DNA of 48,195 bases from Spirulinaceae cyanobacterium (GTDB lineage Bacteria > Cyanobacteriota > Cyanobacteriia > Cyanobacteriales > Spirulinaceae). Both the position numbers and the translations under genes were made by a program. The notes beneath the pieces were generated by a model. That model saw only the letters and a program-made list of their open reading frames with translations. It was not told the origin of the DNA and searched no databases. This document shows, piece by piece, positions 1-34,820 of this stretch. Location: the NCBI GenBank assembly GCA_049601735.1, contig JBMYQW010000001.1:1-48195 (forward strand), read 5' to 3'. Within the stretch, counting starts at the first letter, position 1. The number at the start of each line of letters is the position of its first letter.

Positions 1-3000
1 CATCGGCTAACCCAATCACACTGCCCATCCCATCTTCCAGGTAATAAACCGGATTGCCCAGCTCATCCAAGCGCATCAACGGCATCGACCCCGCATACAC
101 ATACGCCGCCAACGGATCGCCCGCTGCATCCGAAATTAGGTGCGGTGAGGCTAACCCATCCCCCGGATTCGGAGCCACCAGATAATCCCGCGTGCCCCGC
201 TCATCACTCATCTCCACCCGGCGACCCTCACTGTCGTAGTCATAGCTGACAATCGAGACGCCATTAGCATCGGTCACATTCACCAACAGGTCATCACTGT
301 TGTAGATCAGGTTAAAGGTCTCCCCATCCCGGACAATCTGGTCAACCCGACCACCATCGTCGTAACGATAGGTTTCTGTTCCTGAATCAGTGACGATGGT
401 CGAGAGCTGATGGATGCTATCACCGTAATCATAGGTTCCTTCAGCAACGCCGCTTGAAACCGACTGACGATTACCGTCCGCATCATAGGTGTAGGTGATC
501 TCCTCAATCAAAACACCCTGGTCGTCATAATAGGCTTCACTCTCCAACCGCAGTGAGGGATCATAATCCAGCTCAACATAAGAGCCATCTTCACGGGTAA
601 TCTTCGTCGGTTCCCCACCCGGAGCACGTTCATAGGTTACGGAAGCAAGCTCTGTTGTGCTGTTCGGTTCAGGCGCATAGTGGGTAATGCTCTCAATATA
701 GTCTGTGTTTTCCTTGTAGGTGTAGACCGTCTTGATGCCATTGGGCAATGTCCGTTCCGTCAGACGATTCACCTCGTCGTAGGTCATAGTGGTCGTGCCC
801 GTGAGCGGGTCAACCACCTTCGTCAGGTTATTGTTGCCGTCATATTCGTAAGTCGTCTCAAAGGTTTCCGGCGGATTCACACCATCCGGCTCCGCCGTCA
901 CCTTGACGCTGCTCATCCGACCCAAAGCATCATAGCCATATTCAACCTTGCTGCCATCGGGATATTCCAAGCCAGCAAATGCCCCGGTATCGGGTTCATA
1001 GAGGTAGGTCGTAGTTTCGGTTGTGCCCGCATTTTCCGTGACCGTCGTGAGTTGATTCGTGTCAGGGTCATAGCCAAAGGTGACATCACTGACCACATTC
1101 CCGTTATCAGTTTCGGTGCGGCGGGTTTCTAAGCCCGTGTCGGGGTCATAGGTATAGTCCACCACGGCACCCGAGGGCAGGGTTTCCCGCATCAGTTCAT
1201 TGGTCACGGGGTCGTAGACGAAGGAGCGACTGTTGCCACCATCGCCGTAGACGATGGTTTCAATTTCACCGTTGTCGGTGTAGTTGTAGCCGAGAATCGT
1301 CTCGCCCGTCGGGGTCTGGACACTGTAGTCATAGTCAGCCCCGTCGTAATGGAAGGTGTAGACGGTGTCACCCCAGTCGGTGGCGGATTCGAGGCGACCA
1401 AATTCGTCGTAGGTGAAGTCGCGGTCACGTCCGCCTCGGTCAGTGATTTCCGTGGGATAGTCACTGCCCTCTAGCAGGTTGTTGTCGTAGAGGTATTCGG
1501 CGCTGGTGCTGGTGCCATCGGCATACTGGGTCGAGTCGGGCAGGTATTCGGCGGTTTGGGTGCTGGTGGTGCGCCGACCCAAGGGGTCAATGACTGTGGT
1601 GGTGGTGTCGGTATATTCATACCGCCAGAGTTCCCCATTGGCATCGGTCATGGTCTTGATCTGACCATCGGTGTAGTAGGTGTAATGGGTGATGTAGCTC
1701 GTGCCATCGGGCAGACGAATTTCGCGGGCGGCGACTTGACCCAAGAGGTTGTCGTTGAGCGCGTCGGGGTCGGTGTAGCCATCCCCGAGGGTGGTTTGGT
1801 GCTCGTCGTAGTAAGTGAGGGTCTTGATGCCGGTGTTTTCATCCGTTACCTCGGTGACTCGTCCTAGGGGGTCGTTGTAGAGGTAGGTGGTGGTGCCATC
1901 AGGCGTGATTTCTTGCCAGAGTTGCCCGTTGTCGTGGTAGGTGAAGGTTAGATTTTCGCCTTCGGGTGTGACCCAGCCGCCGAGTTTGCCGTCGTCGGTG
2001 AACTTGCGCTCAATCGTGCCGATGGTGGGGGATTCAAGATAGGTCCAGTCACCGCCTGCGCCTTCGTAGTCGTAATCGACGTAGAGCCCATCGCCATAGT
2101 CCACATAGTCTTCGCGGCCCAAGCTGTCATAGGTGAAGAGTGAGACTTCCTCTTCCGGTGTGCCCGGATTCTCGATCATTCGCTCCAGATCACCATTGGC
2201 GTTGTATTCCATTTCGGTGACATCACCGTTGGCATCTTGCATCCAGCCCGGATTGCCGAAGGCATCGAAGTCTCCATAGTACGTCGTGCCATATTGGTCG
2301 GTTTCTTGAATCAGGTTCCCATTGGGCAGGTAAATCCAAGACTGAATCACATTGCCATCCCCATCCTTCAGAGCAGTCAGATTCCCCTGGCTGTTGTAGC
2401 CCATCTCAAAGGTTGCCCCGGTCGGCAGCGTCACAGAGGTCTGCTGACCATATTCGTTGTAGGTGTAGTAGGTCGTCGCTGGGTCACTGTTGCTCGGGTC
2501 ATGCAGTTCTGTCCGGGAGGTCAGATTTCGTTCGGCATCGTAGGTGTAGTTAACAACGTTGCCATTGGCATCAATGGTCTGGGTCAGCAGATGAGGGTCA
2601 TTCGGGTCTTCATATTTAAAGATGACGGTATGCCCAGCGGCGTTCTCTTGGCGAATTACATTGCCGATGTCATCGTATTCATGCAGCGTCGGGTTGCCCA
2701 AAGCATCCTTGGTGATTTGGGTATTGCTGTCGGGGTCGTATTCAAACTCAATCGGGTCGCCATCAGCATCAAAGATCTTCTTGAGCTTGCCATCGGGCAG
2801 ATATTCAGTGCGGACGGCAGGACGATCAAGGGGGTCTTCGATGCGGGTTAAGAAATGGTCTCGGTTCGGGTCTTCGTAGAAGAACTCGGTCTCGTTGTTT
2901 TCGGCATCCGTAACCTTAATCAGGTTGCCTTCCGCATCGTAGTCGTAGGTGATGACGTTATCACGCGGGTCAATCACCTTCACAATCCGACCTTCCGCAT

Positions 3001-6000
3001 CCCGCTCAAAGCGAACGGTTACGCCTGTATCACTGCTAATCCCGGCATCGGTGAAGGTGAGTTTGTTGCCGTTGGTGTCGGTGGCAGTCAGTAGATCGCC
3101 GCTCTCGGGATCAATCTGATACTCAATGCCATCACGGGTGGTGAGGGTGTATTGACCGCCAAAGCGGAAGTCAGCGGGGTTGTAGGGCGTGCCGTCAACG
3201 GCGCGGTATTCTCCATTATTCTGGTCTTCCAGGATCACAGTTCCCTTCACCGAAAGGGTCAAGCCGGAACCATCTTCTGCGACGAAGGCTGGAGAGTAAG
3301 GCGTTAGGCTGGCAAAGGTTGTTAGCCCAGCTTCGGCAAATTCTTCATTCAGCACTGGCTGGAAGCGGAACGATGTGCGTTTGCCACCGGGCAAGGTGAC
3401 GAAGACTCGGGTGTTCTCGGTAAAGGCAGGGTAACGACCCACTAGCTCTTCTTCGGGAGTCTGGGAACGTACACTGACCTGCAAGTTGGTATCCCGGAAC
3501 TCTAAGCGCCAGCCCTGACCAAAGTTATCGGACTGGTGCGCCGTCATACTGTCATAGGTGCGCGTCACCGAGATTGGGATGCCCGCTACAGGCAGTTCGA
3601 GGTCGGTGAAGGAGACCTGGAAGTTGCCGAGCTTCAGCTCACCTATCACCTCTACTTGCTCTTCAAAGAAGCCCGTTGACCCACCGGTGGTCTCAGAAGC
3701 CGTCAGGCGCAGCATATAGCTGTCATTGGGCAGCAATGAAGGGTCAAACGTGCCCAAGGGCTGGGCATCGGGCTTGCTGCCATCAATCTCAGGCACATTT
3801 GTCTGCTCAAAGATCGTGATGGGTTCACTGCCGTCGCGGGGAATCGCTTCGAGTTTGTACGAGACCGTATCCCCTTCACTGTTGAGCACCGTGCCGTAAA
3901 TCGGGGTGGGAGTACTGACAAGGGCGGTATCACCAGCTTCGGCTTTGAGATTATCCAGGTTGAGGTCGATGGTGACTTCGGCGTTGGATTGGGAGTTGAA
4001 GAAGCCAATCTGGAGCGTTTTGCTACTCTCATTGTCGGCAGTGTCCGTGGCTGTTGCTCGCAGTTCTAAGGTCTCGCCGGGCTGACCCACGGGGACAATC
4101 GCAACACCACGACTATCCAAGGGCACGGCAACCCAATCCCCGTTGTTGAGCTGGGTTTCCAGTTGCAGGCTCTTGAGTTTCACATCATCAATGCCCCTCA
4201 CTTGGAACATCATGGTATTGCCTTGACTGACATCTTTCTCAAAGTCGTTGGCTGGATCAAGGGCATCACTAATCACGCCAACGGGTCGGATAACAACTTG
4301 AGGCGCGACATCATCTTGAATCACCGTAAGGTTAATCGTTTCAGTCGTTTCACCCCCCAAGGGATCGGTGATAGTCACGGTAAAGGCAGGCAAACTGCCC
4401 ACATCATCCGCATCCGGTGTCCAACGTATCCGACCTAATTCATCAATCGTCACCCCTGCATCGAGCGCCGCTTGATGGCCGGGGATGTCTGCAATGGTAT
4501 AGGTCAATTCCTGACCCTCGGGATCAATCGCCTTGAGGTCGTAGACATACTCCTGTCCTACGGCTGCCGTATCTGGAGCTTGGGAATTGAGAATCGGGGC
4601 TTGATTCTCCAAGACCGTTACGGTGAATCCTTGCACTGCCCCATGCTCATCATCTGCCGCTGCCACTACAATGTCGTACTGCTGATTGGCATTCGTGCCA
4701 TCAAACGTCCAATTCAGCACACCCTGACTGTCAATGTAGAGACTGGTGGCATCAAAGCCTTGTGCAACCAAAGCATCCCAGTTGAGGATTTGGTAGTTAA
4801 ACTCTCCATTGGTCTTGCCTTCAGGATCATCAATTTCTAGAGCATAGGTGTAGGGGACAGTCGTATCCGCCACATAGCTCGGTAGGGAAGTAATACTGTG
4901 GGGTGAATTGGCTACTTGTGGGTTGGTCTCAGGGGTACTAACTTCCACTGTAAAGCGTTGGCTGGTGCTACCGCCTTGAGCATCCGTCACCACTACCTCT
5001 GCTGTGTAGGAACCGGCTGTATTGGGTGTCCAAAGCACGTCACCTGTTAACGGATCGATAGTCATGCCAGTAGGTGCTTCACTAAACTGATAAGTCAGGG
5101 CATCACCTTCAATATCCTGGGCAACGACCGTGTAGCGGTAGTCCTTGTTGGTACTGCCTTGAGTTGGTGGTGTGGAGTAAATCGTTGGTGGCTTATTGGC
5201 TCCACTGACCGACAGGGTGAATTCTTGACCGGAGGCTACACCGGACGGGTCAATCGTTTCAATAATGATGATATGGTCGCCAATCTGGTCGGATTGAGGC
5301 TGCCAGCTCACGGCTCCAGTCAAGGGGTCAATGACCATACCTCGTGGGGCTTCAATTAAACGCCATAGCAAGGTATCGCCATCGGGGTCACTGGCTGTCG
5401 CGTCATAGCGATAGCGTCGCTCAATGTTAGTTTGTTGTTCAGGAATTGAGGTAATGCGGGGTGGACGGTTCTCGGCGAAGTTAAAGGCATCAATTGTCCA
5501 TTCGTATTCAAGGATGTCAGTCCCATCGCTGATGGCAACCTTGACCCGATGCTCATCAATCTGACTCGCGTCCGGTTGCCAGAAGATGTTGCCTTCACTG
5601 TCTATGGTCATGCCCGCTGGGGCAACGTCATTGCCGTTTTCCTGGACAAACTGATAGGTCAGCGCATCACCATCCGGGTCGGTGGCTTTGAGAACGTGGA
5701 AGTAATTGGCTCCCAGGCGAATGCTTGTCGGTGGGGTTGACTGGAGTTCTGGTGGACGATTGGTCACGGCTTCAATCACCGTGGTGCGAATTGTCTGGAT
5801 GTCCGTGGCCCCCTGCGGGTCACTCACCTGGATGGTGATTTCCTGCTCTCCGAGGCTACTGGGTGTCCAAGTGAGCGTGCCATCGGCGGTGAGATTGACG
5901 CCGCTGGGTGAGTCAATCAGGCTGTAGGTGAGGTTTTCCTGGTCAGCGTCATCCCAGTCAAAAGCCGCGGCTTGATAGGTGAGGGTCTTGCCAAGCTGCG

Positions 6001-9000
6001 GCTCAACGGTTTCGGGAAAGGTGGAGGTGAAGATCGGGGCTTGATTAGGGGCTTCGAGTTCTACTTCGATGGTTTGCAACGCTTGACCGCCATTGCCATC
6101 TTTGGCAATGAGTAAAACGTCGAATTTGACACTTGTCGGAGCAGCATCGGGTCGGCCAAAGGCGGTCAGACGAGCTTGCACCTCACGCAGTTCAGCATAG
6201 TAGTCTTCCACTTGAGCTTTTGTGGGATTCCAGACCACAATGCCCGTATCTGGATCGACTGCCATGCCGTCAGGTTCAAGGGCAAGGTCATAGGTCAAAA
6301 TGTCCGCATCGGGGTCAACGGCATTGGCGCTGTAGCGGAAGCTCTCACCCCCTGCCAGCACCACATCGGGAGCGGTGGTCACAAAGCTTGGATCACCATT
6401 GGGACGGTTGGCTTCTCCATCATGGAGACCAAACCACCGTTCAACGGGTTCACCATCTTTGACCTGGACGATCCAGGGGTCACTGGTGGTGGGATCGTCA
6501 TCAGGGTTGGTGGCTGTTTGACCATACGCTTCGGGTCGGATGGCTCGGATGACATAGTTTTCGGTGTCACTGAGGGGCAGATTTTCAAAGCGGTAGCCCA
6601 CAAAGGCCCGTTCGACGAGAGAGTCGGTATTTTGTTCTCCGGTGACTTGCCAGGGTTCACTGTCATCGAATACCCCATCCCCATTGGGGTCGAGATCCAG
6701 TTGCCCATTGTTATTGGTGTCAAGGTAGACAGTGATGCCTGCTAAATCGGGTTCAAGCTGATAGGCTGCATCCTTACCACTGAGAATGTCTACAAATTCT
6801 TCCACATCGAGCAATTGCCGCACATTGGGATCAATGGGCGTCATCGTTGTAATCGTGGAATAGGGGCCTACGGCAAAAGCACTCAAGGTGGCTCCAGTGT
6901 CGCGGATGGCTTGGGCACTTGCTGCTAACGCTGCACGATTCTCCGGTAACGTAACCCCCCCGTCATAGCCATCGGAGAGGAAGATGACATTGGGGTTTTC
7001 TGTCCCGAGGACATCAATGTACTGGGAAATATCATCAATCGCGCCTTGGATATCCGTTCCATCGTGACCGGGGATGAAAGCGGGCGTTAGGGCATCGAGG
7101 TATTCCAGAATATCGGGTGTGCCGTTCCCGTCATAGTCTGCTTCTGGGGTGATAAAGGCATCCAGGTCGCCACCAGGAATCCAGTCATGGGGCAAGGTTC
7201 CTGTTGTGCCGGTGTTATGACCGGCAATAGCAATTTTGATTTGATTCCCCAAGCCCTGGGAAATATAGCTCTCAATCAATCCTTTGGTGGCGGCAATCTG
7301 AGCATCCAGTACGGTTTCAATCCCATCAGGGCCGGGGAAGGGGGCAGCGACACTGCCAGAGGTGTCAATGGCAATCACAATCGCCGGATCATCCCCTTGA
7401 ATAAGCAGACTATCCCGGAGACCATTCCCGTTGAGGTCGTCAAAGACCGTGCCTTGAATGGTTCCTAAGCTCTCGTGGGGAGTGACATCGAAGGTCTGGG
7501 TATCAAAGCCCCCTCGTCCATCCGTAACTTCTACAGTGAAGGTTTCTGGATTCCCTGCGGTCACAGCATCACTGGGGAACCACAGCAACTCGCCAGTATC
7601 CGTGCTAATTACTGCACCTACTGGCGCATCGACTAAGCGGTATTTGAGCGCGTCACCATCCGCATCCAAGGCGGTGAGCTGATACCGATACATCCCTTGG
7701 TCAAGGGCCACTTTCTCAACGGGCTGACTGAGAATATTAGGTGCATTGTTCTCTGGATCGGGCCAGAGCTTGATGGCATAGGTTTGGAGAGCACGGCCGC
7801 CGCGACCATCATCAGCTTCAACAGTGACGGTGTAGGTTCCCAGGCTGCTGCCTTCTCCATCTAGGGCATCAGCACTGTTCTCACCCGTTCCTGGTGTGAC
7901 GAGATCAGGTCGGGCGGCAGCATGGAGATAGGGGATGAACTCATAAGTAGACGCACTACTCCCCTCGTTTTTCACAACGATAGTGTATTCGCCACTTTGC
8001 GGGAGTTCGATACTGCGGGCATCCTGATTGCTGGTGTCTGAACTCACAGTCAACGGCACAAGTTGATTATTGGGGCCATACACTTCAATTTCCCCCAGAC
8101 CAGATAGGTGGTCTAAGAATAGAGTTTGGCCCGCTTCCGCCGTAATGCGCTGGGCGACATATTCTTTGGGCGCAATAGTGACACTGGTGGCTAGGTTGGG
8201 AGTAAGCTCTGTTGCGGTACTCAACTCTAGAATTTGGAATTTAGAGGTTTGAGTTCCCGCTTGGGTTCCCCGTAAGACCAATTGGTAAACCCCTTCTTCG
8301 GTCAAAGTCAGGATCTCGTCGATATCTTCTCCAGTTTTGGTACTGGCGAGAACTTGACCATTGGGTTTATAGATTGTGGCTTCAACGTTGTTCCCCTCTA
8401 AGCCGTTGAAGAGGTAGCGTACCCCATTGGCTCCATTGAAGGTGTAGACCTTGGTTTCGTAGTTGGTGAGGGTGTCTTGAACGGCATGACCCACTTCCAG
8501 ATAGTTGGCTCCCCGAGTGCTGGCGGGGAATTCGACCAACTCGAACTGATAGTTGCTATTGAGTGAACCGGTGATTTCGAGGGTGTAATCCCCTTGCTGC
8601 GGTAGGACAGCGGTTAGGTGTTCGTTCTGATTCGCAGAGAAGATTTCGGTACTGCCGTCGGGGGCGATGAGACGGGCGGTAATGCTGCCATTTATATTGG
8701 GCGGCAGTGTGAAAAAGACTTGGGTTCCCACATTGCCAGTGATGGTATAGGTCTCGGGGCCAGTGGTCGTAATCGTGCCACTGACGGCGCGGTTGAGATC
8801 ATTGGTCAGGGGTGGGAGACCAGCGGCTGGTGTGGCGGTTACGCCATAGTTGAGAGGAGTTGCCCCTGAGTTGATGACCGCCAGGGTGTATTGACCATTG
8901 GCTGGGAGGGTTGCAGCGAAGTCGTTGGCATCACTGCTACGGGCAATCTCGGCGTTACCACTGTCGTAAAGTACCCATTCAACTCCGGGATCAGTGGTGA

Positions 9001-18000: not shown

Positions 18001-21000
18001 TGAGGTCTAGGGCAATGGCGGGAGGCGTGATGGCGGGGTCGAAGCGGTTGACGGTCTGCTCCAGGCGGACTTCGTTGCCGGCATTGTCGGTGGCGATGAT
18101 TTCAAAGGGGTTGGCTCCCAGGGCGAGGGCAATGCCGGTGAAGCTAAAGTTGCCGCTGCTATCGACGGTGGCGGTTTGACCGTCTAGGGTGATGGTGCTG
18201 CCGGGGTCGGTTTGACCGGTCAGGGTGACGGTACTTTGGTCGGTGCTGAGATCGCCATGGGGCAGGCTGTCACTGCTGGGGTCGAGTCCCCAGTTGAGGT
18301 TGAGTTGGGTGTCACGGGTATAGCCGTAGAAGTTGCTCGTCGCGTTGCCCAGGGTATCGACAGCGCGGACTTCGACGGTGCTGTTGATGCCTTCAGCCAG
18401 CGGGCCACCTCGGATGGCTTCTAGCTCGGCTTCACTGAGGCTAAAGCTGCCGTCCGGGTTGATTTGGCTGGTGATATCGGTATAGGTACTGCTGCCATCG
18501 GTGAAGCGCACTTCAACCGTGGTGATGCCGCTGGGGTCAATAACTTGTCCGGTGATGCTGCCGTCGTTGCTGAGGCGGTCGTAGGGGCTGTTGCCGTTGT
18601 CTTGGCTGAGTTTGACGAAGATGTAGGGATTCTCCGTATCTGGGCTCGTTGGCTGCGGCAGGAGGGCTTCTTCGAGGGGGCTGTTGCGCCAATCGTTGCT
18701 GGGGTTGATATGGGAATCGACTAAACCGACGTTAGCGATGACGCCTTCGATGCTGAAGATGTAGTCGTCGTAGTCTTGGTCGCCACCGGGCAGGGCGGTG
18801 TCTTCGACGGCGAAGACGTTTTGATTGTTCTGAATCGACCGTAGCTGATAGGCTCCAGGATTACTGTCATCGCTGGGAACGAGGCTGATGTAGGGGTCGG
18901 TCTGGTTCCAGTCTTTGGCTTGCTGGAGGGTGCTGGTTCGGGTGATGATGACGGCGAATTGGTCGCCGGGGGTCATGGCGAGGGTTTTGGGACCTTGATA
19001 GGAGCCGTCATTAAACAGCCCATCAACTTTCGCGCCTTCCTGGGGGTCGGAGATGACCAGATGCCCTTCGGGGGTGTTGGTGAGGGCACGACGCAGGGCT
19101 TCTTGGGTGAAGGCGAGGGTTCCCAGTTGGGTCAGATCCATCCCCGTGAGACTGAAGATGCCAATCTCGCCTTCGCGGGCTTCGCCGTCGTAGCGGTAGT
19201 CTACGGTGACTTGACCGCTGGCTTCGACGGTGAAGTAGCCTTCGCTCATCCCAGCGGGGGGAGCGGTACTGAATTCGCGGGTGAGGGTCTGGCTCTGGTT
19301 GGTGGTGTTGCCGGCGGCATCGGTGACGGTGATGTCTAACGTGTTGTCGCCCAATGCCAGGTCTACATTGCTGAAGCTGAAGTTGCCGCTGCTATCGGCG
19401 GTGGTGGTTTGTCCTGTGGTCGTAAGGGTGACGGTGCTGCCGGGGTCGGTTTGCCCGGTCAGGGTGACGCTTCGCTCGTCGGTGATTTGGTCACCGGGTG
19501 TGCCGCTGTCACTGCTGGGGTCGAGGCCCCAGGTGAGCGTGGTGGAGGTGTCGAGGGTGAAGCTGAGGGTCTGGCTGTCGCTGTTGCCGAGTCCGTCGGT
19601 GGCTTCGAGTTCGAGGCTGTAGCTGCCGTCGGGTAATGTGCCGCCGTTGAGGGTGGTGAGGAAGGCGGTATCCAGACTAAATGTGCCGTCGGGGTTGAGT
19701 TGGCTGGTGATGTCACTGTAGGCGCTGCCGTTGAGGCTCACCTGGACAAGGCTGATGCCGTTACTGTCAGTGACTTGACCGCTGATGTCGGGATTGTTTG
19801 TGATGCCGTCGCTGGGGTCGCTGCCGCTGTCGGTGGCGAGGTCTAAGGTGATTTGGGGTGGATCGCTGCCGGGTTGGGTGCGGGTGATGGTTTGCTCAAT
19901 GCGGACTTCGTTGCCAGCATTGTCGGTGGCGACAATTTCAAAGGGGTTGGCTCCCAGTTCTAGCGTCACGCCCGTGAAGCTGAAGTTACCGCTGCTATCG
20001 ACGGTGGCGGTTTGCCCGTCTAGGGTAATGGTGCTGCCGGGGTCGGTTTGACCAGTGAGCGTGACGGTGCTCTGGTCGGTTTGTAGGTCGCCAACGGGGG
20101 TGCTGTCACTGGCGGGGTCAAGCCCCCAATTGAGGTTGAGGATGGTGTCGCGCTGGTAGCCGTAGACAAAGAGGTAGGTGTTGCCCGCGGTATCGATGGC
20201 TTTGAATTCGGCCGCATTCCCGCCTTCATTGAGGGGAGCGCCTTTGATGGTCTCTAGCTGCGCCTCATCCAAACTAAACCGCCCGTTGGCGTCGAGTTGG
20301 CTGGTGATGTCGGTGTAGCCGTTGCCGCCACCAAAGACCTGGACTTCAACGCTGACCAAACCACTGGGATCGAGGATTTGTCCACTGAGTCCACCGTTGT
20401 TGCTGAGGCGGTCGAAGGGATTACTGCCGTTGTCTTGGGTCAGTCGGATGAAGCCGTAGGGAATTTCTGTGTCTGGGCTTGTCGGTTGGAGCAGGAGGGC
20501 TTCTTCCAGGGGGCTGTTGCGCCATTCTTTGCTGGGATTGATGTGGGGATCTACTAAGCCCACATTGGCGGTTGCGCCTTCAATGCTAAAAACGTAGTCG
20601 TTATAGTCCTTGTCGCCACCGGGGAGAGCGGTGTCTTCCACCGCAAAGACGTTCTGACCACTGCGGATCGCTCGCAGTTGGTAGGCACTGGCGTTGCTGT
20701 CATCGCTGGGAACAAGGCTGATGTAGGGGCTGGTCTGGTTCCAGTCTTTGGCTTGCTGGAGCGTATTGTTCCGGGTGATGATAATGCCGAAATGGTCGCC
20801 AGGGGTCATGGCAACGGTTTTGGGGCCGTTGTAGACTTCGCCACTGACATTAATCCCGTCAATCTTGGCTCCGTCTTGAGTATCGGCAATGACGGTATGC
20901 CCTTCGGTGGTGTTGGTCAGGGCGCGGCGCAGGGCTTCTTGGGTGAAGGCTAGGGTTCCCAGTTGGCTCAGATCCATCCCGCTGAGGCTAAAGAGCCCGA

Positions 21001-21985: not shown

Positions 21986-22557
21986 GCTGCACCTGAGCAA
22001 ACTATGCGAGTTTTGTTGATGTTGGTCTTAAAACTAGCCAATTTGAATGTTCAGAAATACACCCAATCGCTCAGAACATCACAATTTTCAATCATTCAAA
22101 TCGTGCTTGCTCTAGCTCTGTTTAAGACGCTGCGATAGTAGCACGGAAATCGCTCTTCTTTCGGAGATCTCGGGCGATTGCTTTACAATCCGTCAATTTC
22201 ATCGAACGGGTTAAGATTTAGTTCGCTTTTGAGCATTTTCTACGTGTTTTCAATGGGCAGCTCCCTAGGAAAAAGCCGAGTCCGCTGCTTTTTACGTGGA
22301 TCTACGCAGCTTAATCAGTACTGGTCTTATTCTGTCTCAGGGTTATGGCGGTGCTCTTGATTCAACATCCATTTTGAGTCGGGTTTAAGTTCGTTTTTGA
22401 AGACCTAGAAACCTGGGTTATACAGGGGCTAAACTGGGTCTCCTTAGAAATACGGAGAGACGAAAGGATGTGTTTTGCGGTAGGGTTACGAGCCGAGGAT
22501 CAATGCTGACCCAGTTGGTGGTTGGTGTTGGATTCTTTCGCAATCAGGGGTGTGGTC

Positions 22558-23277
22558 ATGACAGCAGGTATGGCAATGGGGTCGTTGCTCCAGGTGGGGG
22601 ACTATTCTCTCACCCCCGACGAATTACTCGCTTGCTTACGGCGCTATCAGCTCCTGCCGCAGTTGGAGCGGGAACTACGGATTGACCGGGCGATTTCCGA
22701 AGTTGCCTGTAGTGAAAAAGAAGTGCAGTTTGCCTGCGAGCAGTTCTACGCTGGGCGTCAGCTCCAAGGTGAGGGGCAACGGCAACAATGGCATCAGCGC
22801 CAAGGGCTCTCGGTTGAAGATTTAACGGTCATGGCGAGTCGTCAGGTACGCCTTGCCAAGTTCAAGCAGCAGACCTGGGACCATCAGGTGGAGTCCTACT
22901 TCCTCAAGCGCAAGTCAGACTTGGATCGCTACAGTTTCTCTCTCTTGCGCCTGCCGGAGTTGGGCATTGCTCAGGAGCTTTACTACCGTTTGGAGTTGGG
23001 AGAGCAGACGTTCGCTCAGGTGGTCGCGGAGCAGGGCAGCGATGCAGAACGTCAAGCTGGGGGACGCATTGGCCCGGTCTCTCTGGGTCAGCTCTCACCC
23101 CCCCTGAGCCGTTGTCTCAAAGCCAACCCGCCGGGGACGGTTGTGCCACCGTTTGAGTTGGGAGAGGGCGTTGTCCTGGTTCAGGTGGGCGAGGTGCATC
23201 CGGCACGGCTCGATGAGGCGATGCGACGGCAACTCCTCGATGAGTTGTTCGAGCAATGGCTGGCAGGGCAATCATGA
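22558..23277 (+). CDS. Parvulin-like (PpiC-type) peptidyl-prolyl isomerase domain protein, first gene of the secretion operon
   Basis: This is track ORF 22522-23277, which starts on TTG. I prefer the in-frame ATG at 22558 (MTAGMAMGSLLQVGDYSLTPDELL...). The C-terminal half reads FAQVVAEQGSDAERQAGGRIGPVSLGQLSPPLSRCLKANPPGTVVPPFELGEGVVLVQV. This follows the parvulin pattern F..LA...S.D..S...GG.LG....G.L.P. The stop overlaps the possible ABC start at 23274 (ATGA). Confidence 0.6.
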   Translation: MTAGMAMGSLLQVGDYSLTPDELLACLRRYQLLPQLERELRIDRAISEVACSEKEVQFACEQFYAGRQLQGEGQRQQWHQRQGLSVEDLTVMASRQVRLAKFKQQTWDHQVESYFLKRKSDLDRYSFSLLRLPELGIAQELYYRLELGEQTFAQVVAEQGSDAERQAGGRIGPVSLGQLSPPLSRCLKANPPGTVVPPFELGEGVVLVQVGEVHPARLDEAMRRQLLDELFEQWLAGQS

Positions 23278-26200
23278 CGGGTCTCGATGGGCTTCCGCCA
23301 GCGGTACGGGAGGCATTTCAACCCGTGCAGTTCCCCATGGGTGCAACCCTCTTAGCTGCCGAGCAGGTTCCCGCTCAAGTGCTCTTTCTGACCTCGGGGC
23401 AGGCGCGTTTGCTGATTCATGACCCCCGCACCGAACGGCTGGTGCCCTTGGCTCGGTTGGAGGCGGGGGCGTTTCTCGGGGCGAATAGCCTGCTGCGGGG
23501 TGTTGCGGGGGTGGGGGCGATCGCCTCCACAGAGATCCTGGCGTTGATGATTCCGGCGGGTCAGTTTCTCTCGCTGGTGGCAGCCTATCCATCATTTGCC
23601 CAAAGGGTGAGTGAGCCCGCTTTGGAGGAAGTGGCTCAGGTGCTCTTGCAGCAGCTTGTCCGCCAAGCGGATGGCACTACCCCGATTCGTCCGCTGGCGC
23701 TGGAGGCATTTCCCCAAGCGCAATTGGGGTCTGGGGGTAATCCTGCTCTGTCAGAGCGTTATGGGCAGAGCAATGGTAATGATGCAATAGAGCGTCCCCT
23801 AGCCGACCTGTGGGCGGAGGAGATTCCCGAATTTTCGGGGTTGGTCTCTACTGCCAACCCTGCCGTACCCGTCACCCCCACATCAGGCTACTGTTGGTTT
23901 GTTTCCGGCGGAACGCTGGACTCCGAGCTGCTCTACAGCAGGATTGAGCAACCAGAGCCGTCGAGCCCATTGCGTCTGTTGGGACTGCCCTTAGAATTTC
24001 TGCCCTCCCGTCCCCAGCCAACCGATACCGCCCCGCCTGCTCCACCCCTCGCGCCTCGTCCCGAAGCCACATCTGACACCCGACACCCAATCCCCGACAC
24101 CCCGCCTCAATCTCCCCTTGCTCCTGCACCAAACCCCCACACCCCATCCCCAACACCCTCTACCCCTACCGCCGAAACGCCACCCAGCCTCAAAAAATAT
24201 CCCTATACCCACGGTTCCGGCCCCCTCCACGGCACGTTGGCTTGCTTCAAGATGCTTACCACCTTCCTGGAGCTGCCCTACCGCCCCGATGTGATGCGGC
24301 GGGTGTTGCAAGATCGCTTGCGTAAGGATGGCTCCCTCTCGTTGGAGTTCTGTGCGGCGATTGGGGATCTTTTAGGCTTACAAGTCCAGCTCACCCATTG
24401 CCCGGCGGAAGTTCTACCCCGTGTACCCACCCCGGCACTCCTGGCATGGGAGGATTCCTTTGCCGTGCTCTATGAAACCCGACCCAACCTCTTGGTCGTG
24501 GGCATTCCTGCGGCAGGGGTGCAACGCTATACACCCGCTGAACTCCAATCCCTTTGGGGCAATGAGGGGCCGGTCTTGCTGTTGCAGCGCACCCTAACCA
24601 CCCCCAAGCAACGCTTTGGCTTGTCTTGGTTTCTGCCTGCGGTCTCCCAATATCGCCGGGTACTGCTGGAGGTCTTTCTCGCTTCCTTCTTTGTCCAGCT
24701 CTTTGCCCTAGTCAATCCCTTGATGACGCAACAGATCATTGACAAGGTGATTGTCCAGGAAGCGCCGGATTCGCTACCCACGTTTGGCTTGATTCTCTTG
24801 GTCGTGGGCGTGTTTGAATCTTTGCTCACGGTCTTGCGTACCTATCTGTTTGTGGATACGACCAATCGGATTGACTATGGCTTGGGCTCGCAGATCATTG
24901 ACCATCTGCTGCGCCTGCCCCTGGGCTTCTTCAGTCGGCGGCCGGTGGGGGAATTAACCAGTCGGGTGAATGAGTTGGAGAATATTCGCCAATTTCTCAC
25001 GGGCACGGCGTTGACGGTGGTGCTCGATGCGCTGTTTTCGGTGATCTATGTGGCGATTCTCTTTTTCTACAGTGTCAAGTTGGCATTGGTGGCGCTGGCG
25101 GTTGTGCCGCTGTTTATCCTGCTGACGATTCTGCTCTCCCCAGAGATTCGTCGTCGCTTGCGGGTGAAGGCGGAGCGGAATGCGGCGACCCAGTCCCATC
25201 TGGTGGAAGTGCTCTCGGGTATGGAGACGGTGAAGGCACAGAACATTGAGTTGAAGTCACGGATGTCTTGGCAACAACGCTATGGACGTTACGTGATTGC
25301 GGGCTTTCGAGCGATTCAGCTCTCGACGGTTGCCAGTGCGTTGAGTGGCTTTTTGAATAAGTTCTCAGGACTGCTGGTGCTCTGGGCGGGGGCTTATTTG
25401 GTGATTGCCGGGGAGATGACGCTGGGGGAGTTGATTGCCTTTCGGATTATTGCGGGCTATGTGACGAGTCCCCTATTACGCCTCTCCCAACTCTGGCAAA
25501 ACTTTCAGGAGACGGCACTTTCTTTGGAGCGTTTGAGCGACATTGTGGATCATCCCCAAGAGGCGGAGGCGGATGCGCGGGGTAATCTGCCGATGCCGTT
25601 GGTGGCGGGCAAGATTGAATATGACCAGGTCTCGTTTCGCTTTGGCAATAGTGGCCCGTTGCAGTTGGATAATGTCTCGCTGGAGATTCCGGCGGGGGCG
25701 TTTGTGGGGATTGTGGGCTTGAGTGGCTCGGGGAAGAGTACGCTGACCAAACTATTACCACGTTTGTATCATCCCTTGGGGGGCAGGATTCTGGTGGATG
25801 GCTATGACATTCACAAAGTTGAACTCTATTCCCTACGACGCCAGATTGGCATTGTGCCCCAGAATACGCTGTTGTTTGAGGGCACGGTGCAGGAGAATAT
25901 TGCCCTGACCAACCCAGATGCGACGTTTGAGGAGATTGTGGCAGCGGCTGAGGTGGCAGCCGCTCATGATTTCATTATGGAGCTGCCCGCGGGCTACAAC
26001 TCCCTAGTGGGGGAGCGAGGCTCGAACCTGTCGGGGGGACAGCGTCAGCGGGTTGCCATTGCCCGGACGGTGCTCCAAGACCCCCGCCTGCTGATTATGG
26101 ATGAGGCGACCAGCGCCCTGGACTATGACACGGAGGCGCAGGTCTGTCGGAATTTAGTGCAGGCGTTCAAAGGACGCACGGTGCTGTTTATCACCCATCG

Positions 26201-26333
26201 CCTCAGAACCATCCAGAATGCTGACCGGATTGTGATGATGGGCAATGGCGCGATTCTGGAGCAGGGAAGCCATGAAGAACTGATGCAGTTGCGGGGCAGT
26301 TATTACTGTTTGTTTCGGCAGCAGGATGGGTGA
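23256..26333 (+). CDS. Type I secretion-type ABC exporter with an N-terminal cNMP-binding-like domain, a proline-rich linker, a non-catalytic C39-like domain, a TMD and an NBD
   Basis: 1025-aa ORF, with an alternative start at 23274. Walker A is GLSGSGKSTL, the signature is LSGGQRQR, Walker B is LLIMDEATSALD and the H-loop is FITHRL. The CAP-like segment is LFLTSGQARLLIHDPRTERLVPLARLEAGAFLGANSLL. The C39-like segment is GPLHGTLACFKMLTTFLELPY...LLAWEDSFAVLYE...VVGIPAAG. The proline-rich linker is encoded at about 24000-24180. Confidence 0.9.
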   Translation: MAGRAIMTGLDGLPPAVREAFQPVQFPMGATLLAAEQVPAQVLFLTSGQARLLIHDPRTERLVPLARLEAGAFLGANSLLRGVAGVGAIASTEILALMIPAGQFLSLVAAYPSFAQRVSEPALEEVAQVLLQQLVRQADGTTPIRPLALEAFPQAQLGSGGNPALSERYGQSNGNDAIERPLADLWAEEIPEFSGLVSTANPAVPVTPTSGYCWFVSGGTLDSELLYSRIEQPEPSSPLRLLGLPLEFLPSRPQPTDTAPPAPPLAPRPEATSDTRHPIPDTPPQSPLAPAPNPHTPSPTPSTPTAETPPSLKKYPYTHGSGPLHGTLACFKMLTTFLELPYRPDVMRRVLQDRLRKDGSLSLEFCAAIGDLLGLQVQLTHCPAEVLPRVPTPALLAWEDSFAVLYETRPNLLVVGIPAAGVQRYTPAELQSLWGNEGPVLLLQRTLTTPKQRFGLSWFLPAVSQYRRVLLEVFLASFFVQLFALVNPLMTQQIIDKVIVQEAPDSLPTFGLILLVVGVFESLLTVLRTYLFVDTTNRIDYGLGSQIIDHLLRLPLGFFSRRPVGELTSRVNELENIRQFLTGTALTVVLDALFSVIYVAILFFYSVKLALVALAVVPLFILLTILLSPEIRRRLRVKAERNAATQSHLVEVLSGMETVKAQNIELKSRMSWQQRYGRYVIAGFRAIQLSTVASALSGFLNKFSGLLVLWAGAYLVIAGEMTLGELIAFRIIAGYVTSPLLRLSQLWQNFQETALSLERLSDIVDHPQEAEADARGNLPMPLVAGKIEYDQVSFRFGNSGPLQLDNVSLEIPAGAFVGIVGLSGSGKSTLTKLLPRLYHPLGGRILVDGYDIHKVELYSLRRQIGIVPQNTLLFEGTVQENIALTNPDATFEEIVAAAEVAAAHDFIMELPAGYNSLVGERGSNLSGGQRQRVAIARTVLQDPRLLIMDEATSALDYDTEAQVCRNLVQAFKGRTVLFITHRLRTIQNADRIVMMGNGAILEQGSHEELMQLRGSYYCLFRQQDG

Positions 26334-26656
26334 AAGGGGAAGGATGAAGGATGAATAAATTGGCTGGTTTTGAGTGGCAAGTAAAAAGTAATGAGTTTTG
26401 GAGAAGTTCATAATGCGACCGTCTTTTAATTCCAGCCGGGTTGAGAATACTGGCCCCTATTGCAAGAGTCTGAGATGGCAATCTCCATCTCAGCAGGAGG
26501 TGTCGGGGGACTGGTCCCCTGACAACCGGGTTTGGCAGCGAGGTTGTTCGTTTTTCAAGGACGCGAATGGTGAGTGAACCATGACTTCTGTTTGCATCGA
26601 TGCAATGGATTGAACCAATATTTTTGAATTTCTACTTTTGAATTTTGCATTGAACC

Positions 26657-28162
26657 ATGCCCCAATCCTCCAAACCCCCCACCCAACCCACCAACCTCGT
26701 CCCCTTCCCCAACCAACCCCCAGGGGAGCTAACAGCCTTTGAAGATCCAATTCTGCTCAAACAATCGCCCTTTTGGTCACGATTACTCCTCTGGGCGCTC
26801 CTAACCATGACGACGTTTACGATTGGCTGGGTGTTTTTGGCGCAGATTGACCAGGTGGTCGTGGCTCAGGGGGAGTTGGAGCCCCAGGGCAAGGTGGAAG
26901 AGGTGCAGGCGGTGGCGAATGTCACGGTGGATGAGGTGCTGGTGGAGAATGGCGAAGTGGTGGAGCGGGGGGAGCGGTTGATTGCTCTGGATACAGCGGC
27001 GCTGGAGACGGAGCTGGAGAGTTTAAAGCGGCAGTTTTTGCTGCTGTCCCAGGAGACGGCGTTTTATCGGGCGCAGTTGGGCAATGGGTCATTGCAGGGG
27101 GTGGATCTGGCGTTGGTGGATGTGCCGGCGGATATTTTGTTTTTGGTCAGAGACCGGAGTAATTTGCTCGGTGAGATTGCCCTGCTGCGTTCGCAGTTGG
27201 GTCAGAGCTCGGGGGGACTTTCTGCGGAGCAGCGGGCGCGGTTGCGGAGTTCTCAGGCGAGTTTGCAGGCGCAGTTGCAGGTGGATGAGTTGGCGGTGTC
27301 TCAATTGCAGAGTCAGTTGGCGCAAACTAGGGTGGAGCTGGCAAATGCCCGGACGGATTTGGCATTAGAGCAGGATAAGCTCTCGCGCTATGAGGCGTTG
27401 GAGAAAGAAGGGGCGGTGGCGGAGTTGGTGACGATTGAGCAGGAACAGAAAGTGAATGGGGTGGAGACGCAGGTGGGGGTACTGACGAAGGAGGTGCAGC
27501 GGTTGGAGCGGGCGATCTCGCAGGCCCAGGCGACGGTTTCAACCACCGTGCATGGGGAGACAACGGCGGTGCAGGGGCGGATCGCCGAGGCGCAGCAGCA
27601 GCTCAAGGAGTTGGATGCGCGGTTGGGCAAGTTAATTGTGGACAATGAGCGGCAGTTGGCGCAGCTTGAGGGTGAAATTGAGCAGACGGAGGCGCTGCGG
27701 GTGGAGCATGAGTTGGTGGCGCCGGTGGCGGGGGTGGTGTTTGAGTTGGAAGCCTATGAGGGCTTGGTGGCGAATCGCTCGGAGGTGCTTTTGAAGGTGG
27801 TGCCGGGGGATGCGCTGGTGGCGGAGGTGTTTATTGCGGCGGATGATATTGCCTATGTGCAGCGGCAGATGGCGGTGGATGTGCGCCTGGAGGCGTTTTC
27901 GAGTAGTGATGGGGCGAAGGTTGAGGGGACGCTGATTTGGATTGGGGATGATGCGATTGAGCCGGATGAACTCAATCCCTATCATCGCTATCCGGCGAAG
28001 GTGCGGCTAGAGCAGCAAACAGTGGAGGTGCGGGGAGAGGTGAAGCGGCTGAAGCCGGGGATGCGGGTGAGTGCTTCGATTAAGGAGCGCAGGCGTCCGG
28101 TTTTTGCTGTGTTTGCGGATTTTTTGACGGACCGCTGGGATAGCTTGAAGAAGATGCGCTGA
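26657..28162 (+). CDS. HlyD-family membrane fusion (periplasmic adaptor) protein
   Basis: 501-aa ORF. It has an N-terminal cytoplasmic tail followed by one TM segment (FWSRLLLWALLTMTTFTIGWVFLA). The lipoyl-like hairpin reads VVAQGELEPQGKVEEVQA. A long coiled-coil section is rich in Q/L/E. The C-terminal beta-barrel motif reads LKPGMRVSASI. It sits downstream of the ABC gene. Confidence 0.85.
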   Translation: MPQSSKPPTQPTNLVPFPNQPPGELTAFEDPILLKQSPFWSRLLLWALLTMTTFTIGWVFLAQIDQVVVAQGELEPQGKVEEVQAVANVTVDEVLVENGEVVERGERLIALDTAALETELESLKRQFLLLSQETAFYRAQLGNGSLQGVDLALVDVPADILFLVRDRSNLLGEIALLRSQLGQSSGGLSAEQRARLRSSQASLQAQLQVDELAVSQLQSQLAQTRVELANARTDLALEQDKLSRYEALEKEGAVAELVTIEQEQKVNGVETQVGVLTKEVQRLERAISQAQATVSTTVHGETTAVQGRIAEAQQQLKELDARLGKLIVDNERQLAQLEGEIEQTEALRVEHELVAPVAGVVFELEAYEGLVANRSEVLLKVVPGDALVAEVFIAADDIAYVQRQMAVDVRLEAFSSSDGAKVEGTLIWIGDDAIEPDELNPYHRYPAKVRLEQQTVEVRGEVKRLKPGMRVSASIKERRRPVFAVFADFLTDRWDSLKKMR

Positions 28163-30912: not shown

Positions 30913-31413
30913 AGTGAGTCTGACCGTAAATAAGCCTTTAACCGATGATATGAATATCGCAACTCTCAACAGTGCGATCTGGCGAATAAATTTTTCCTGC
31001 TCACCTCTACGATGAGGTTTTTATTACAAAATCAGGCATTTATCTAGTTATACCAGATTTCGATATAGCCGTACTAAAGGCGGTTTTAAATGATCTTTTT
31101 CCTAGCCCAGATCCCTAAAAACCTTGATTGATAGGGGTTTCAGGTTGACGAGCAAAATTTGGTTTGTAATAAAAAAATTTTTGGCTTATTACAGCGAATT
31201 TTGAGGGTTTATGCGCATAAATGGATGAATTTCAGGATCGAGCTTTGGGCATAGCCGTTATTCTGTAATAAATTTTTTCGAGGATTTTCGAGAAAGATCC
31301 TGCATGTGTCGTGCCCGAGGAGGGCTCTGCACTGCCAAATTTGATTTCAGCGGATTGGACAACTGGCGATCGAGAAATTCAGATAATCGTTTATCACGAT
31401 TCAATGGATAGCA

Positions 31414-34700: not shown

Positions 34701-34820
34701 GGATTGTTCCAGCTCTAGTTCGGGAGATTCTGGTGGGTGTGGTGAGCCTGGTTTGGAGGGTTCTGAAGGGAGTCCAATTGTCCGCCTTAAAGCGGCATCA
34801 CAGTTTTGGAGGCGAGTCAT
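31764..34820 (-). CDS. Plasmid replication protein of the cyanobacterial CyRepA type: Toprim-like DUF3854 domain plus a P-loop helicase/NTPase
   Basis: 1018-aa ORF. The Toprim-like block reads LPLVITEGAKKALAALSQGYIAIALYGCKCG...SVAFDADTKGSAKKAV...GKGLDDL. Walker A is HSGLGTGKTK and Walker B is ILVLDEVDQ. Similarity to Synechocystis pSYSA Slr7037-type Rep proteins is from memory and not searched. Confidence 0.72.
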   Translation of the reverse strand: MTRLQNCDAALRRTIGLPSEPSKPGSPHPPESPELELEQSAIHPSFIGRAVEIAKEIEYHPTTREPIATPLDDALGKRYTRFGRQAKANEQGLIFRNEDSSVWQVKRELGVLQADGRRGKYLAPKGIGNRAYLPPIPDAVLKLICDRHSLNFKSVSSEITDHGSFWAWVETHPELPLVITEGAKKALAALSQGYIAIALYGCKCGRSEDLVPFLTPGRLISVAFDADTKGSAKKAVKQGIGILRGAIGSRGAVLSVAQWQPRQGKGLDDLIAKSGPAAMEKAIAGATLYALYKARNAVKNPLGKYQPNLRVNVPCLGAAIAPESIQNEGIVILHSGLGTGKTKLIEKLIADCEAVIAPGHRASLQTALATSLGLEYIGEVDLGGGYIISRAGLPTKRVSLCWDSLLKVPALLFPDGSYILVLDEVDQGFWHLLKGATVAKGGKRPGIVARGIDRIHGARLVIAASGTLSAQDIKLLVALRQEQPWILQNDYQGNAYPITLYTHDSAPGAQKQARGAAIAEIETRIRRGEFGIIACDQRISAKALRLMAESLGVPPEAILTITRETSGNKLQQSFLDAKDKAKWLREHGIVLVIHNSSLTSGINIEEEYFDFVGGLFEGKTIAPNDAIQQLARCRPAVPRIVFAAARGVKDQNGATNARDYQRNLDRQESRYTQATGRSFALQHEAITAYIATAAAARNRAMADFGAYLQAGLEAAGHTVTLGTPTGAADAAAQRWQGWLQAVRDRYFPEVVDSLIINGDRAKALQEKLSLTHAESLQLERFKICDFFHIHPETLTPEAVKADGKGRYRRNVSRLENLLWEGLAQAKDDAQLALLTRWNQPIAPHDRPCDEFEAKAAIALEVPALLEKCLEATATGAGWYRDTPWVKAVGDRARACSEDVRLCLGFNPAKMTGVQIVGEILRRYGLKTCSKRITLKGERARRYEVHLDSFDTLQDLLLKRAPDHFQQGLTPAATPLMKYLLPGVAWGRKEEEQVPVQTSSPCENWRITSLSSTLQPVIA

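Follow-up and report, generated by a model that had tools for sequence, protein, structure and literature searches.

Introduction

How does a protein of more than seven thousand residues without a signal peptide leave a cyanobacterial cell, and does the transporter operon encoded beside it provide the route? This question is raised by a 48,195-nucleotide stretch of DNA from a Spirulinaceae cyanobacterium (GenBank assembly GCA_049601735.1, contig JBMYQW010000001.1, positions 1 to 48,195 of the forward strand), which is referred to here in its whole length as the window. It contains a giant gene with rearrangement hotspot (Rhs)/YD repeats and, divergent from it, an operon coding for a parvulin-like peptidyl-prolyl isomerase (PPIase), an ATP-binding cassette (ABC) exporter and an HlyD-family adaptor. 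An earlier reading, made from the sequence only, had called this operon atypical and proposed that it exports the giant.

Rhs/YD toxins are delivered by the type VI secretion system (T6SS), the Sec pathway, type VII secretion (T7SS), Photorhabdus virulence cassettes (PVC) or Tc complexes. The routes listed for Rhs-type polymorphic toxins by Zhang et al. (2012; PMC3482391) are the type II and type V secretion systems, T6SS, T7SS, PVC, TcdB/TcaC, PrsW and MuF, and the type I secretion system (T1SS) is mentioned there for repeats-in-toxin (RTX) toxins only. The one mention of T1SS for Rhs-like toxins that we found is speculative and concerns signal-less proteins of Rickettsia (PMC9111745). RTX proteins that leave by T1SS are abundant in cyanobacteria (PMC3034196), and our literature search combining Rhs or YD repeats with T1SS and cyanobacteria turned up no account of a giant paired with a T1SS. 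Our analysis establishes the identities of the genes, their plasmid setting, the paralogy of the operon and the recurrence of such giants beside T1SS genes. The locus is probably a plasmid cassette in which an Rhs polymorphic toxin or surface giant would be exported by its private, diverged copy of a T1SS operon.

Results

A giant Rhs/YD protein without a signal peptide

The giant gene and its segments are as follows.

2 to 21985, minus strand: giant open reading frame (ORF) of at least 7,328 aa, acidic, free of Cys, without a signal peptide, with an Rhs/YD shell at its end (open frame, conserved start, Pfam, composition)
21581 to 21985, minus strand: aa 1-135, acidic Pro-rich N-terminal extension with DPLLAAG (composition; no Pfam match)
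21098 to 21580, minus strand: aa 136-296, uncharacterised N-terminal module with the motif GAYA..NTIYL...LLEELGHaxDaxLN..DTxGDEGxxF (profile search, predicted fold)
16181 to 21097, minus strand: aa 297-1935, three super-repeats of ~600 aa, DUF4114 then immunoglobulin (Ig)-like domains (Big_13, Glucodextran_B, Big_6) (Pfam, translation)
7886 to 14995, minus strand: aa 2331-4700, long PPC-like beta-sandwich array (PPC matches, motif count, colinearity with Calothrix BAZ65188.1)
3656 to 7885, minus strand: aa 4701-6110, He_PIG, Big_9, cadherin-like and VWA-like segments, and Ig-like domains before the Rhs part (Pfam)
2 to 3655, minus strand: aa 6111-7328, DUF6531 and RHS/YD shell, cut ~290 aa short of the expected end (Pfam; closest modules and complete homologues)

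The frame runs uninterrupted from an ATG at 21985 to base 2 of the window, where the left edge cuts it after 7,328 aa. Its start, MDQLGSP...LESSALLL-EE, is conserved in two orthologues (loci L001 and L002). The peak Kyte-Doolittle hydropathy (19-residue window) reached 0.74 within aa 1-300 and 1.36 across the entire visible giant, and the scan revealed neither a signal peptide nor a membrane segment in these 7,328 aa. Thus, the earlier claim of an ORF of at least 7,328 aa with no Sec/Tat-type N-terminus holds. An acidic N-terminus with an orthologue-conserved start stands where WapA-type Sec substrates carry a cleavable signal peptide. The giant contains 1,102 D+E against 312 K+R residues, and none of its 7,328 residues is Cys (P ~2e-34, given that Cys makes up 1.06% of the residues in the other window ORFs). 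A motif count found no GGxGxD (RTX) motif in the visible 7,328 aa. We read the ORF as a surface or exported protein.

Pfam matches on the giant comprise DUF4114 (three), Big_13 (eight), Glucodextran_B, Big_6, He_PIG, Big_9, Cadherin_5, PPC, DUF6531 and RHS_repeat, and a motif count gave 19 PPC-like units in aa 2394-4312, mostly spaced by 95-120 aa. The Ig, cadherin, PPC and YD domains described from the sequence only were therefore recovered by Pfam, but the VWA assignment was not, since the segment at about aa 4860-5060 stays below threshold (VWA_2, 18.9 bits against a cutoff of 27). In the N-terminal extension (aa 1-135), which has 22 D+E, 1 K+R and 18 P residues, identity to the orthologues is 68% (L001) and 39% (L002). 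DPL(x)G-type motifs are found in low-complexity N-terminal extensions of the window giant (aa 37-43, ~21857-21877) and of the giants at L002, L170, L174 and L175, and are common to T1SS-adjacent giants that are otherwise unrelated.

The giant has an RHS/YD shell (RHS_repeat, 200.7 bits) preceded by DUF6531 (aa 6119-6164, 30.9 bits), as Rhs/YD polymorphic toxins do. A homology search with this end found only proteins of at most 1,922 aa and no full-length orthologue. The closest modules (55% identity) run ~290 aa further, with an Rhs core end and a variable toxin, and lie in arrays with ankyrin-repeat genes, which are typical of toxin-immunity loci. In one such array, among the closest to the window shell (L163, 1043-13791), Rhs fragments alternate with ankyrin-repeat genes, and it looks like a string of orphan toxin-immunity cassettes. 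Three complete homologous giants on plasmids, described below, extend past the window-end point by 264 (Nostoc N6), 293 (Calothrix) and 324 aa (Nostoc UHCC 0926). The extra stretch consists of an Rhs core end (..YYxRARYY..G.F..D....NP.N..DPxG) and a C-terminal domain different in each homologue; in the UHCC 0926 giant this domain is HNH-like, and immunity genes of the DUF4241 and Tdi1-like kinds come next on the plasmid. Because both the closest modules and the complete homologues continue for ~290 aa to a toxin, the window giant most likely ends in the same way past the left edge, with an immunity gene nearby.

The marks of other known classes are missing. Pfam found neither the PAAR or VgrG domains of T6SS Rhs effectors nor the TcdB/SpvB N-terminal domains of Tc TcB/TcC proteins in the giant, and no TcA partner occurs among the neighbouring genes. 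The window holds no T6SS or Tc genes and the visible giant no RTX nonapeptides, as had been read from the sequence. LapA-like RTX adhesins have RTX motifs and BTLCP/LapD genes, and none of these occurs in the visible giant or the window, respectively.

Two side observations concern the gene itself. The orthologue in the metagenome-assembled genome (MAG) P01_G01_bin.54 (L001/L003, ~2336-2382) switches frame at about residue 122 and was called as two ORFs, which is either an assembly error or a real frameshift. The G+C content is ~0.58-0.60 at 16-22 kb (the N-terminal DUF4114/Ig part) and ~0.50 at 10-14 kb (the PPC part), and the GC-skew flips at 14-16 kb; this unevenness and reversal hint at a mosaic origin.

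The adjacent operon encodes a T1SS

The divergent region and the operon contain the following features.

21986 to 22521, no strand: divergent intergenic region between the giant gene and the operon (sequence read)
22522 to 23277, plus strand: parvulin-like PPIase or chaperone gene (Rotamase 31.7 bits; TIGR04500 71 bits, below the cutoff of 180)
23256 to 26333, plus strand: HlyB-family ABC exporter of 1,025 aa (cNMP_binding 34.1 bits, Peptidase_C39 22.9 bits, ABC_membrane, ABC_tran)
26657 to 28162, plus strand: HlyD-family membrane-fusion adaptor (HlyD_3 56.4 bits against a cutoff of 22.2)

The parvulin-like gene, which codes for no signal peptide, is listed with a TTG start, and the likely true start is an ATG at 22577 that matches the homologues. 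The gap to the giant gene is 536 bp to the TTG or ~590 bp to the ATG, in agreement with the ~570 bp first given for this divergent trio of parvulin-like, ABC and HlyD genes. A promoter scan found no consensus sigma-70 promoter in 21986 to 22521. The parvulin-like ORF overlaps the ABC start by 22 nt (23256-23277), which suggests that the two genes are translationally coupled; the same tight junction is seen in annotated plasmid operons.

The exporter consists of an N-terminal cyclic nucleotide monophosphate (cNMP)-binding domain, a Pro-rich linker, a C39-like domain, the transmembrane part and the ATPase. It passes the TIGR01846 type_I_sec_HlyB model (743 against a cutoff of 725.55), and its best solved structure in the PDB is E. 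coli HlyB (563 bits). The Peptidase_C39 match is weak and begins at profile position 15, and the position of the catalytic Cys is H here and D, N or A in relatives. The C39-like domain is therefore non-catalytic and of the HlyB type, as had been noted. Neither of the marks of peptidase-containing ABC transporters, a catalytic Cys/His pair in C39 and a GG leader on the substrate, is present. A double-glycine leader, IELLSRNEIGG (aa 192-202 of the giant), was considered and ruled out, since its GG (aa 201-202) lies inside the conserved N-terminal module and the C39-like domain of the exporter has no catalytic Cys. By its sequence, the operon is a genuine T1SS inner-membrane operon.

The architecture of cNMP, C39-like and ABC domains is shared by hundreds of cyanobacterial proteins at 52-56% identity. 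We collected 80 genome loci around ABC homologues; one (L003) duplicates the giant-linked L001, so that 79 were compared, and 71 had enough flanking sequence. A PPIase homologue lies immediately upstream of the ABC gene in 51 of these 71 loci and an HlyD homologue immediately downstream in 66. With this conserved order the operon is a standard cyanobacterial T1SS operon, and its description as atypical was wrong. The parvulin-like gene is a regular component of such operons. A giant-like gene stood beside the chromosomal-type copies in none of the 79 loci.

The giant-linked copy differs from the chromosomal ones in sequence. Chromosomal ABC proteins from different orders are 60-78% identical among themselves, whereas the window ABC and two relatives close to it share just 54-59% identity with them. 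The window protein matches these relatives at 83% and 78% in full-length alignment (95% and 77% in BLAST local alignment). In addition, a standard copy (L059) occurs in MAG P01_G01_bin.54 alongside the giant-linked one (L003). The low identity and the presence of both kinds in one genome show that the giant-linked operon is a diverged paralogue.

Giants and T1SS operons are linked on plasmids

The block of giant, PPIase, ABC and HlyD genes, with the giant divergent, is kept in both close relatives (L001 and L002), and the flanks differ: beyond HlyD lie a recombinase and CyRepA1 in the window, ParA in L002, and acetyltransferase, leucine-rich-repeat and cyclase genes in L001. A megablast of the window against PLSDB gave no match. 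A tblastn survey of PLSDB with the ABC gene detected copies in many cyanobacteria, and 11 plasmid-borne copies were inspected. A PPIase homologue is also found upstream of the ABC gene on the plasmids examined, and a candidate substrate of at least 1,200 aa adjoins nine of the 11 copies.

Calothrix PCC 7716 p5: 10,327-aa giant; ParA just past HlyD
Calothrix NIES-4105 plasmid3: 11,597-aa giant
Calothrix NIES-4105 plasmid4: 7,546-aa 'YD repeat protein' BAZ65188.1, in tandem with the operon, not divergent
Aulosira laxa plasmid: 10,491-aa giant
Nostoc N6 pNPM1: WP_181154573.1, 4,621 aa, divergent as in the window
Nostoc UHCC 0926 pn2: WP_273769849.1, 4,511 aa, divergent
Nostoc TCL26-01: 1,625-aa Calx-beta protein, on a CyRepA1 plasmid
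Gloeocapsa PCC 7428 plasmid: PPC proteins of 1,510 and 1,205 aa
Acaryochloris marina pREB1 (L178, 12231-23731): two HlyC lysine acyltransferase genes, a 1,365-aa RTX protein and PPIase-ABC-HlyD

The two copies without a large neighbour are those of PCC 7120 alpha (small genes only) and of a 17-kb Synechococcus plasmid. On pREB1, the RTX protein has 26 GGxGxD motifs, and the layout is the classical hlyCABD order with a parvulin-like gene inserted. The giants of 10,327, 10,491 and 11,597 aa are non-Rhs proteins. Three giants are Rhs homologues of the window giant and align with it as follows.

Calothrix BAZ65188.1: window aa 2380-7328 against 2520-7253, 33% identity, 5,147 colinear columns, 2,065 bits
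Nostoc N6: window aa 5076-7271 against 2199-4357, 33% identity, 2,326 columns, 889 bits
Nostoc UHCC 0926: window aa 5191-7328 against 2062-4187, 34% identity, 2,288 columns, 917 bits

The Nostoc N6 giant additionally matches window aa 1929-2371 at 44% identity. The three differ from the window giant in their N-terminal domain and in having a gene of a family that we call 'up' immediately upstream. They contain no RTX motifs. The T1SS-adjacent giants of Calothrix, Nostoc N6 and UHCC 0926 have 0-2 Cys in 4,500-11,600 residues, and an Rhs protein of Nostoc UHCC 0870 with no adjacent T1SS has 0 Cys in 3,212 residues. The homologues are annotated merely as 'YD repeat protein' or 'putative Ig domain-containing protein', and the pairing is already present, unrecognised, in several complete public plasmids. 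Of what had been proposed from the sequence only, the link between the giant and the ABC, HlyD and PPIase genes is strongly supported by the block in two relatives and on three complete plasmids, and export through them is probable.

The N-terminal module is a large protein family

Giant aa 136-296 match no Pfam or NCBIfam family. An exhaustive profile search of 1.84 billion representatives found 3,699 cluster representatives of this N-terminal module (N-module), 1,324 of them at E <=1e-30, where a word-indexed search had given just five matches. The module is nearly always N-terminal in the protein, has the invariant residues EExGH..D...N..D..GDEG, and is a large domain family not described before. 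Named members come from Planktothricoides, Pseudanabaena and Nostoc, and 18 cyanobacterial plasmids encode an N-module protein.

Among 30 long members, 20 have RTX repeats, others have DUF11, Calx-beta, cadherin, He_PIG, DUF4114 or PPC domains, and two have RHS repeats. The N-module marks a class of T1SS-type substrates and is typical of cyanobacterial RTX proteins. In cyanobacterium ESFC-1, for example, a 2,317-aa N-module RTX protein is encoded 2.6 kb downstream of PPIase-ABC genes. Nostoc HK-01 BBD63171.1 (4,202 aa) combines the N-module with DUF6531, RHS repeats and nine C-terminal RTX repeats, and Nostoc UHCC 0870 WP_237996442.1 (3,212 aa) combines it with Ig, cadherin and VWA domains, 19 RHS repeats and a terminal colicin E3 domain.

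The AlphaFold2 model of the module is a compact alpha/beta domain (pLDDT 79.9). The top Foldseek matches of the model are all zincin metallopeptidases and are weak (E 0.1-0.6, TM 0.44-0.54), so the zincin-like fold is treated as a lead only. Weak Pfam matches to SprT-like (E 0.011) and M48 (E 0.021) families were also obtained. The module carries EExxH where zincins have HExxH, and the predicted fold is at most weakly zincin-like. Calothrix non-Rhs giants have a genuine matrixin motif at the position equivalent to that of the N-module.

Plasmid context and neighbouring genes

The remaining window genes form a plasmid backbone of CyRepA1, ParA, ParB, two tyrosine recombinases, two Uma2 proteins and a YhcG nuclease. 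The CyRepA1 replication protein indicates that the cluster is plasmid-borne.

31764 to 34820, minus strand: CyRepA1-family plasmid replication protein (NF042913, 217 bits against a cutoff of 200; DUF3854)
43255 to 44175, minus strand: ParB (Pfam)
44175 to 44945, minus strand: ParA (Pfam)
47545 to 48195, minus strand: fragment of an 'up' family gene (~240-aa family), cut by the right edge (matches the gene upstream of the Calothrix PCC 7716 giant at 36% identity over 204 aa, E 2e-48)

The 'up' fragment (47545 to 48195) has no Pfam family. Its homologues lie directly upstream of the giants on Calothrix NIES-4105 plasmid3 and plasmid4 and PCC 7716 p5 and in Nostoc UHCC 0870, N6 and UHCC 0926, as well as near five chromosomal T1SS operons (L008, L013, L015, L018 and L044). 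Judged by these neighbourhoods, it is possibly an accessory gene of the T1SS-giant system.

Two tandem paralogues of the Uma2 family (putative restriction endonucleases) are located at 35602-36267 and 36376-37086 on the minus strand. A Uma2 gene directly follows HlyD on Nostoc N6 pNPM1 and Nostoc UHCC 0926 pn2, and on the Gloeocapsa plasmid one is located past the two PPC proteins, ~13 kb downstream of HlyD. The 758-aa ORF just after the operon (28693-30969, minus strand) has no Pfam family and a weak XerC-like C-terminal match (E 6.7e-5), and it may encode an unusually large tyrosine recombinase.

Discussion

A proposed plasmid cassette of a giant and its exporter

From this setting we infer both the route of the giant and the roles of its partners. 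The giant would be made in the cytoplasm without a signal peptide, and its acidity and lack of Cys may favour an unfolded, secretion-competent state. The cytoplasmic parvulin-like protein, translationally coupled to the ABC gene, might act as a holdase or foldase for very long substrates. By homology, the HlyB-type exporter would recruit the giant through its non-catalytic C39-like domain, and the N-terminal cNMP-binding domain may gate its activity. The ABC protein, HlyD and a chromosomal TolC-like channel would then thread the chain through both membranes in one step. Outside the cell, the Ig, DUF4114, PPC and cadherin-like repeats would fold into a long stalk, and the YD shell would enclose a variable toxin domain of ~200 aa encoded beyond the window, against which a nearby gene would give immunity. 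More speculatively, the N-module might tether or process the giant at the cell surface.

Several points weigh against this reading. Its support comes throughout from gene neighbourhood and homology. No T1SS operon was found near the N-module genes at 80 metagenome loci, and PLSDB contains two Rhs proteins with an N-module (Nostoc HK-01 and UHCC 0870), neither with an annotated T1SS gene within 15-20 kb. The N-module profile finds no match in the Nostocales Rhs giants that do lie beside the operon (Calothrix NIES-4105, Nostoc N6 and UHCC 0926), and the module therefore cannot be a shared targeting element. Neither RTX repeats nor a T1SS signal can be recognised in the visible 7,328 aa of the window giant or at the C-termini of the complete Rhs homologues. 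Those C-termini are polymorphic toxin domains, and a secretion signal at this end is hard to reconcile with such variation. The folding of a YD cocoon after C-terminus-first export may be a further difficulty. The HlyD adaptor is below the TIGR01843 cutoff (169 against 208.65 bits). No TolC gene is present in the window; the TolC gene is often unlinked in T1SS.

With polymorphic toxin C-termini, a T1SS would need a signal other than a conserved extreme C-terminus. Candidates for such recognition are an internal or N-proximal element, the 'up' protein as an adaptor, and the parvulin-like partner. A bolder version of the proposal holds that these giants form a distinct, plasmid-mobilised class of Rhs toxins, delivered by T1SS without a conserved C-terminal signal and showing a caged toxin on a tethered stalk to neighbouring cells, as a T1SS-based counterpart of contact-dependent inhibition; we regard it as possible but doubtful.

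A different explanation is that the giant is hitch-hiking, that is, the plasmid T1SS exports other substrates and the giant leaves through the housekeeping T1SS, by some unknown pathway or by lysis. In cyanobacteria, most T1SS substrates are encoded away from the transporter (a giant in 0 of 79 chromosomal-type loci, the operon in 0 of 80 N-module loci), a pattern that looks like a housekeeping T1SS with substrates elsewhere. The 17-kb Synechococcus plasmid has the operon without a large substrate gene, and the Rhs giants have neither RTX repeats nor a recognisable C-terminal signal. However, four separate lineages have a homologous Rhs giant next to the operon, in two gene orders and between differing flanks, and nine of the 11 plasmid copies have a large substrate-like neighbour. 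The window itself offers no other candidate substrate, since what is visible of the plasmid otherwise consists of backbone genes. The expected co-occurrence of giant and operon failed for the chromosomal-type operons and the N-module genes, whereas nearly all plasmid copies adjoin a large substrate-like protein, and hitch-hiking is in our view unlikely.

It is less probable still that the giant is mainly a T1SS adhesin or surface fibre like LapA, SiiE or SwmB, with a structural, internal YD shell and with RTX repeats and a signal beyond the window. Adhesin-type repeats make up most of its mass, and up to ~1,600 further residues could exist past the left window edge, as the source contig measures 52,992 bp and the window 48,195 bp. 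Nostoc HK-01 BBD63171.1 has an internal RHS region, with VWD, He_PIG and the nine RTX repeats after it. In contrast, the closest Rhs modules and the three colinear giants end ~290 aa on, with an Rhs core and a variable toxin, and their ends have immunity-like neighbours (ankyrin, Tdi1-like, DUF4241 or small ORFs). The last domain is HNH-like in one homologue and a colicin E3 domain in the Nostoc UHCC 0870 protein.

A protein of more than 7,300 aa far exceeds, to our knowledge, the known cargo of extracellular contractile injection systems (eCIS), and it is hardly credible that a contractile injection system or other phage-derived machine delivers the giant as cargo with the N-module as a PVC/eCIS-type releasing peptidase (DUF4157-like), since the module has no DUF4157 match in Pfam and EExxH instead of HExxH, 20 of its 30 long members have RTX repeats, and no contractile-system genes occur in the window or beside the homologues. 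This idea draws on the zincin matches of the N-module in Foldseek and, weakly, in Pfam, and on the constant N-terminal metallopeptidases of PVC-delivered toxins, including Rhs-containing cyanobacterial ones (Zhang et al., 2012; PMC3482391).

If the cassette does export its giant by T1SS, the conserved pairing of such Rhs giants (4.5-7.5 thousand residues) with a private T1SS would add a delivery route for Rhs proteins. It would also raise the questions of how a T1SS recognises a protein with a polymorphic C-terminus and how a YD cocoon folds when the C-terminus is exported first. A mobile 'weapon plus launcher' cassette on cyanobacterial plasmids would be relevant to competition within mats, lichens and blooms. 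The analysis also uncovers two widespread, uncharacterised families, the EExxH N-module (~3,700 representatives) and the ~240-aa 'up' family. The function of such operons could usefully be gauged against the hemolysin-type operon of pREB1 with its parvulin-like gene. The idea is directly testable, because Calothrix NIES-4105, Nostoc N6 and Nostoc UHCC 0926 can be cultured and their plasmid sequences are complete.

Comparison with known systems

The operon resembles E. coli HlyCABD in its HlyB-subfamily ABC protein with a non-catalytic C39-like domain, its HlyD protein, the adjacent putative substrate gene and a TolC gene presumably located elsewhere. It differs in the extra N-terminal cNMP domain of the ABC protein and in the parvulin-like gene translationally coupled upstream. 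Unlike the Hly substrate, the window giant carries an Rhs shell at its end and no RTX repeats in the visible 7,328 aa, and a HlyC gene is missing. Giant genes of Omnitrophota preceded by secretion loci that include a Rotamase_2 PPIase offer a parallel (bioRxiv 10.1101/2023.11.21.568195).

LapA, SiiE, MpIBP and SwmB are likewise signal-less, acidic, repeat-rich surface proteins of several thousand residues, exported by ABC and membrane-fusion proteins encoded beside them, and an N-terminal module may stay at the cell in these giant T1SS adhesins (PMC3034196; PMC8277102). In contrast to them, the window giant is without RTX repeats, has no LapG/LapD-type release system in the window, and carries a distal Rhs/YD cage in place of a ligand-binding domain. 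Its N-module is unrelated and weakly zincin-like, and a role as a retention plug is putative at most.

With the Rhs/YD toxins (T6SS Rhs proteins, Bacillus WapA and TcB/TcC), the giant shares DUF6531 and the RHS shell, and its homologues have the core end, variable toxins and immunity-like genes. It differs from them in lacking PAAR/VgrG, a Sec signal and TcdB/SpvB domains, in being 3-5 times the typical length, and in its link to a T1SS. A parallel in working, though not in descent, is CdiA/CdiB, where a very long extracellular stalk bears a polymorphic C-terminal toxin with a matching immunity protein. The window stalk is Ig, PPC and cadherin-like instead of filamentous haemagglutinin (FHA)-type, the secretion genes are those of a T1SS instead of a type Vb two-partner system, and the toxin would be caged by YD repeats. 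By this analogy, the giant likely serves in competition between neighbouring cells.

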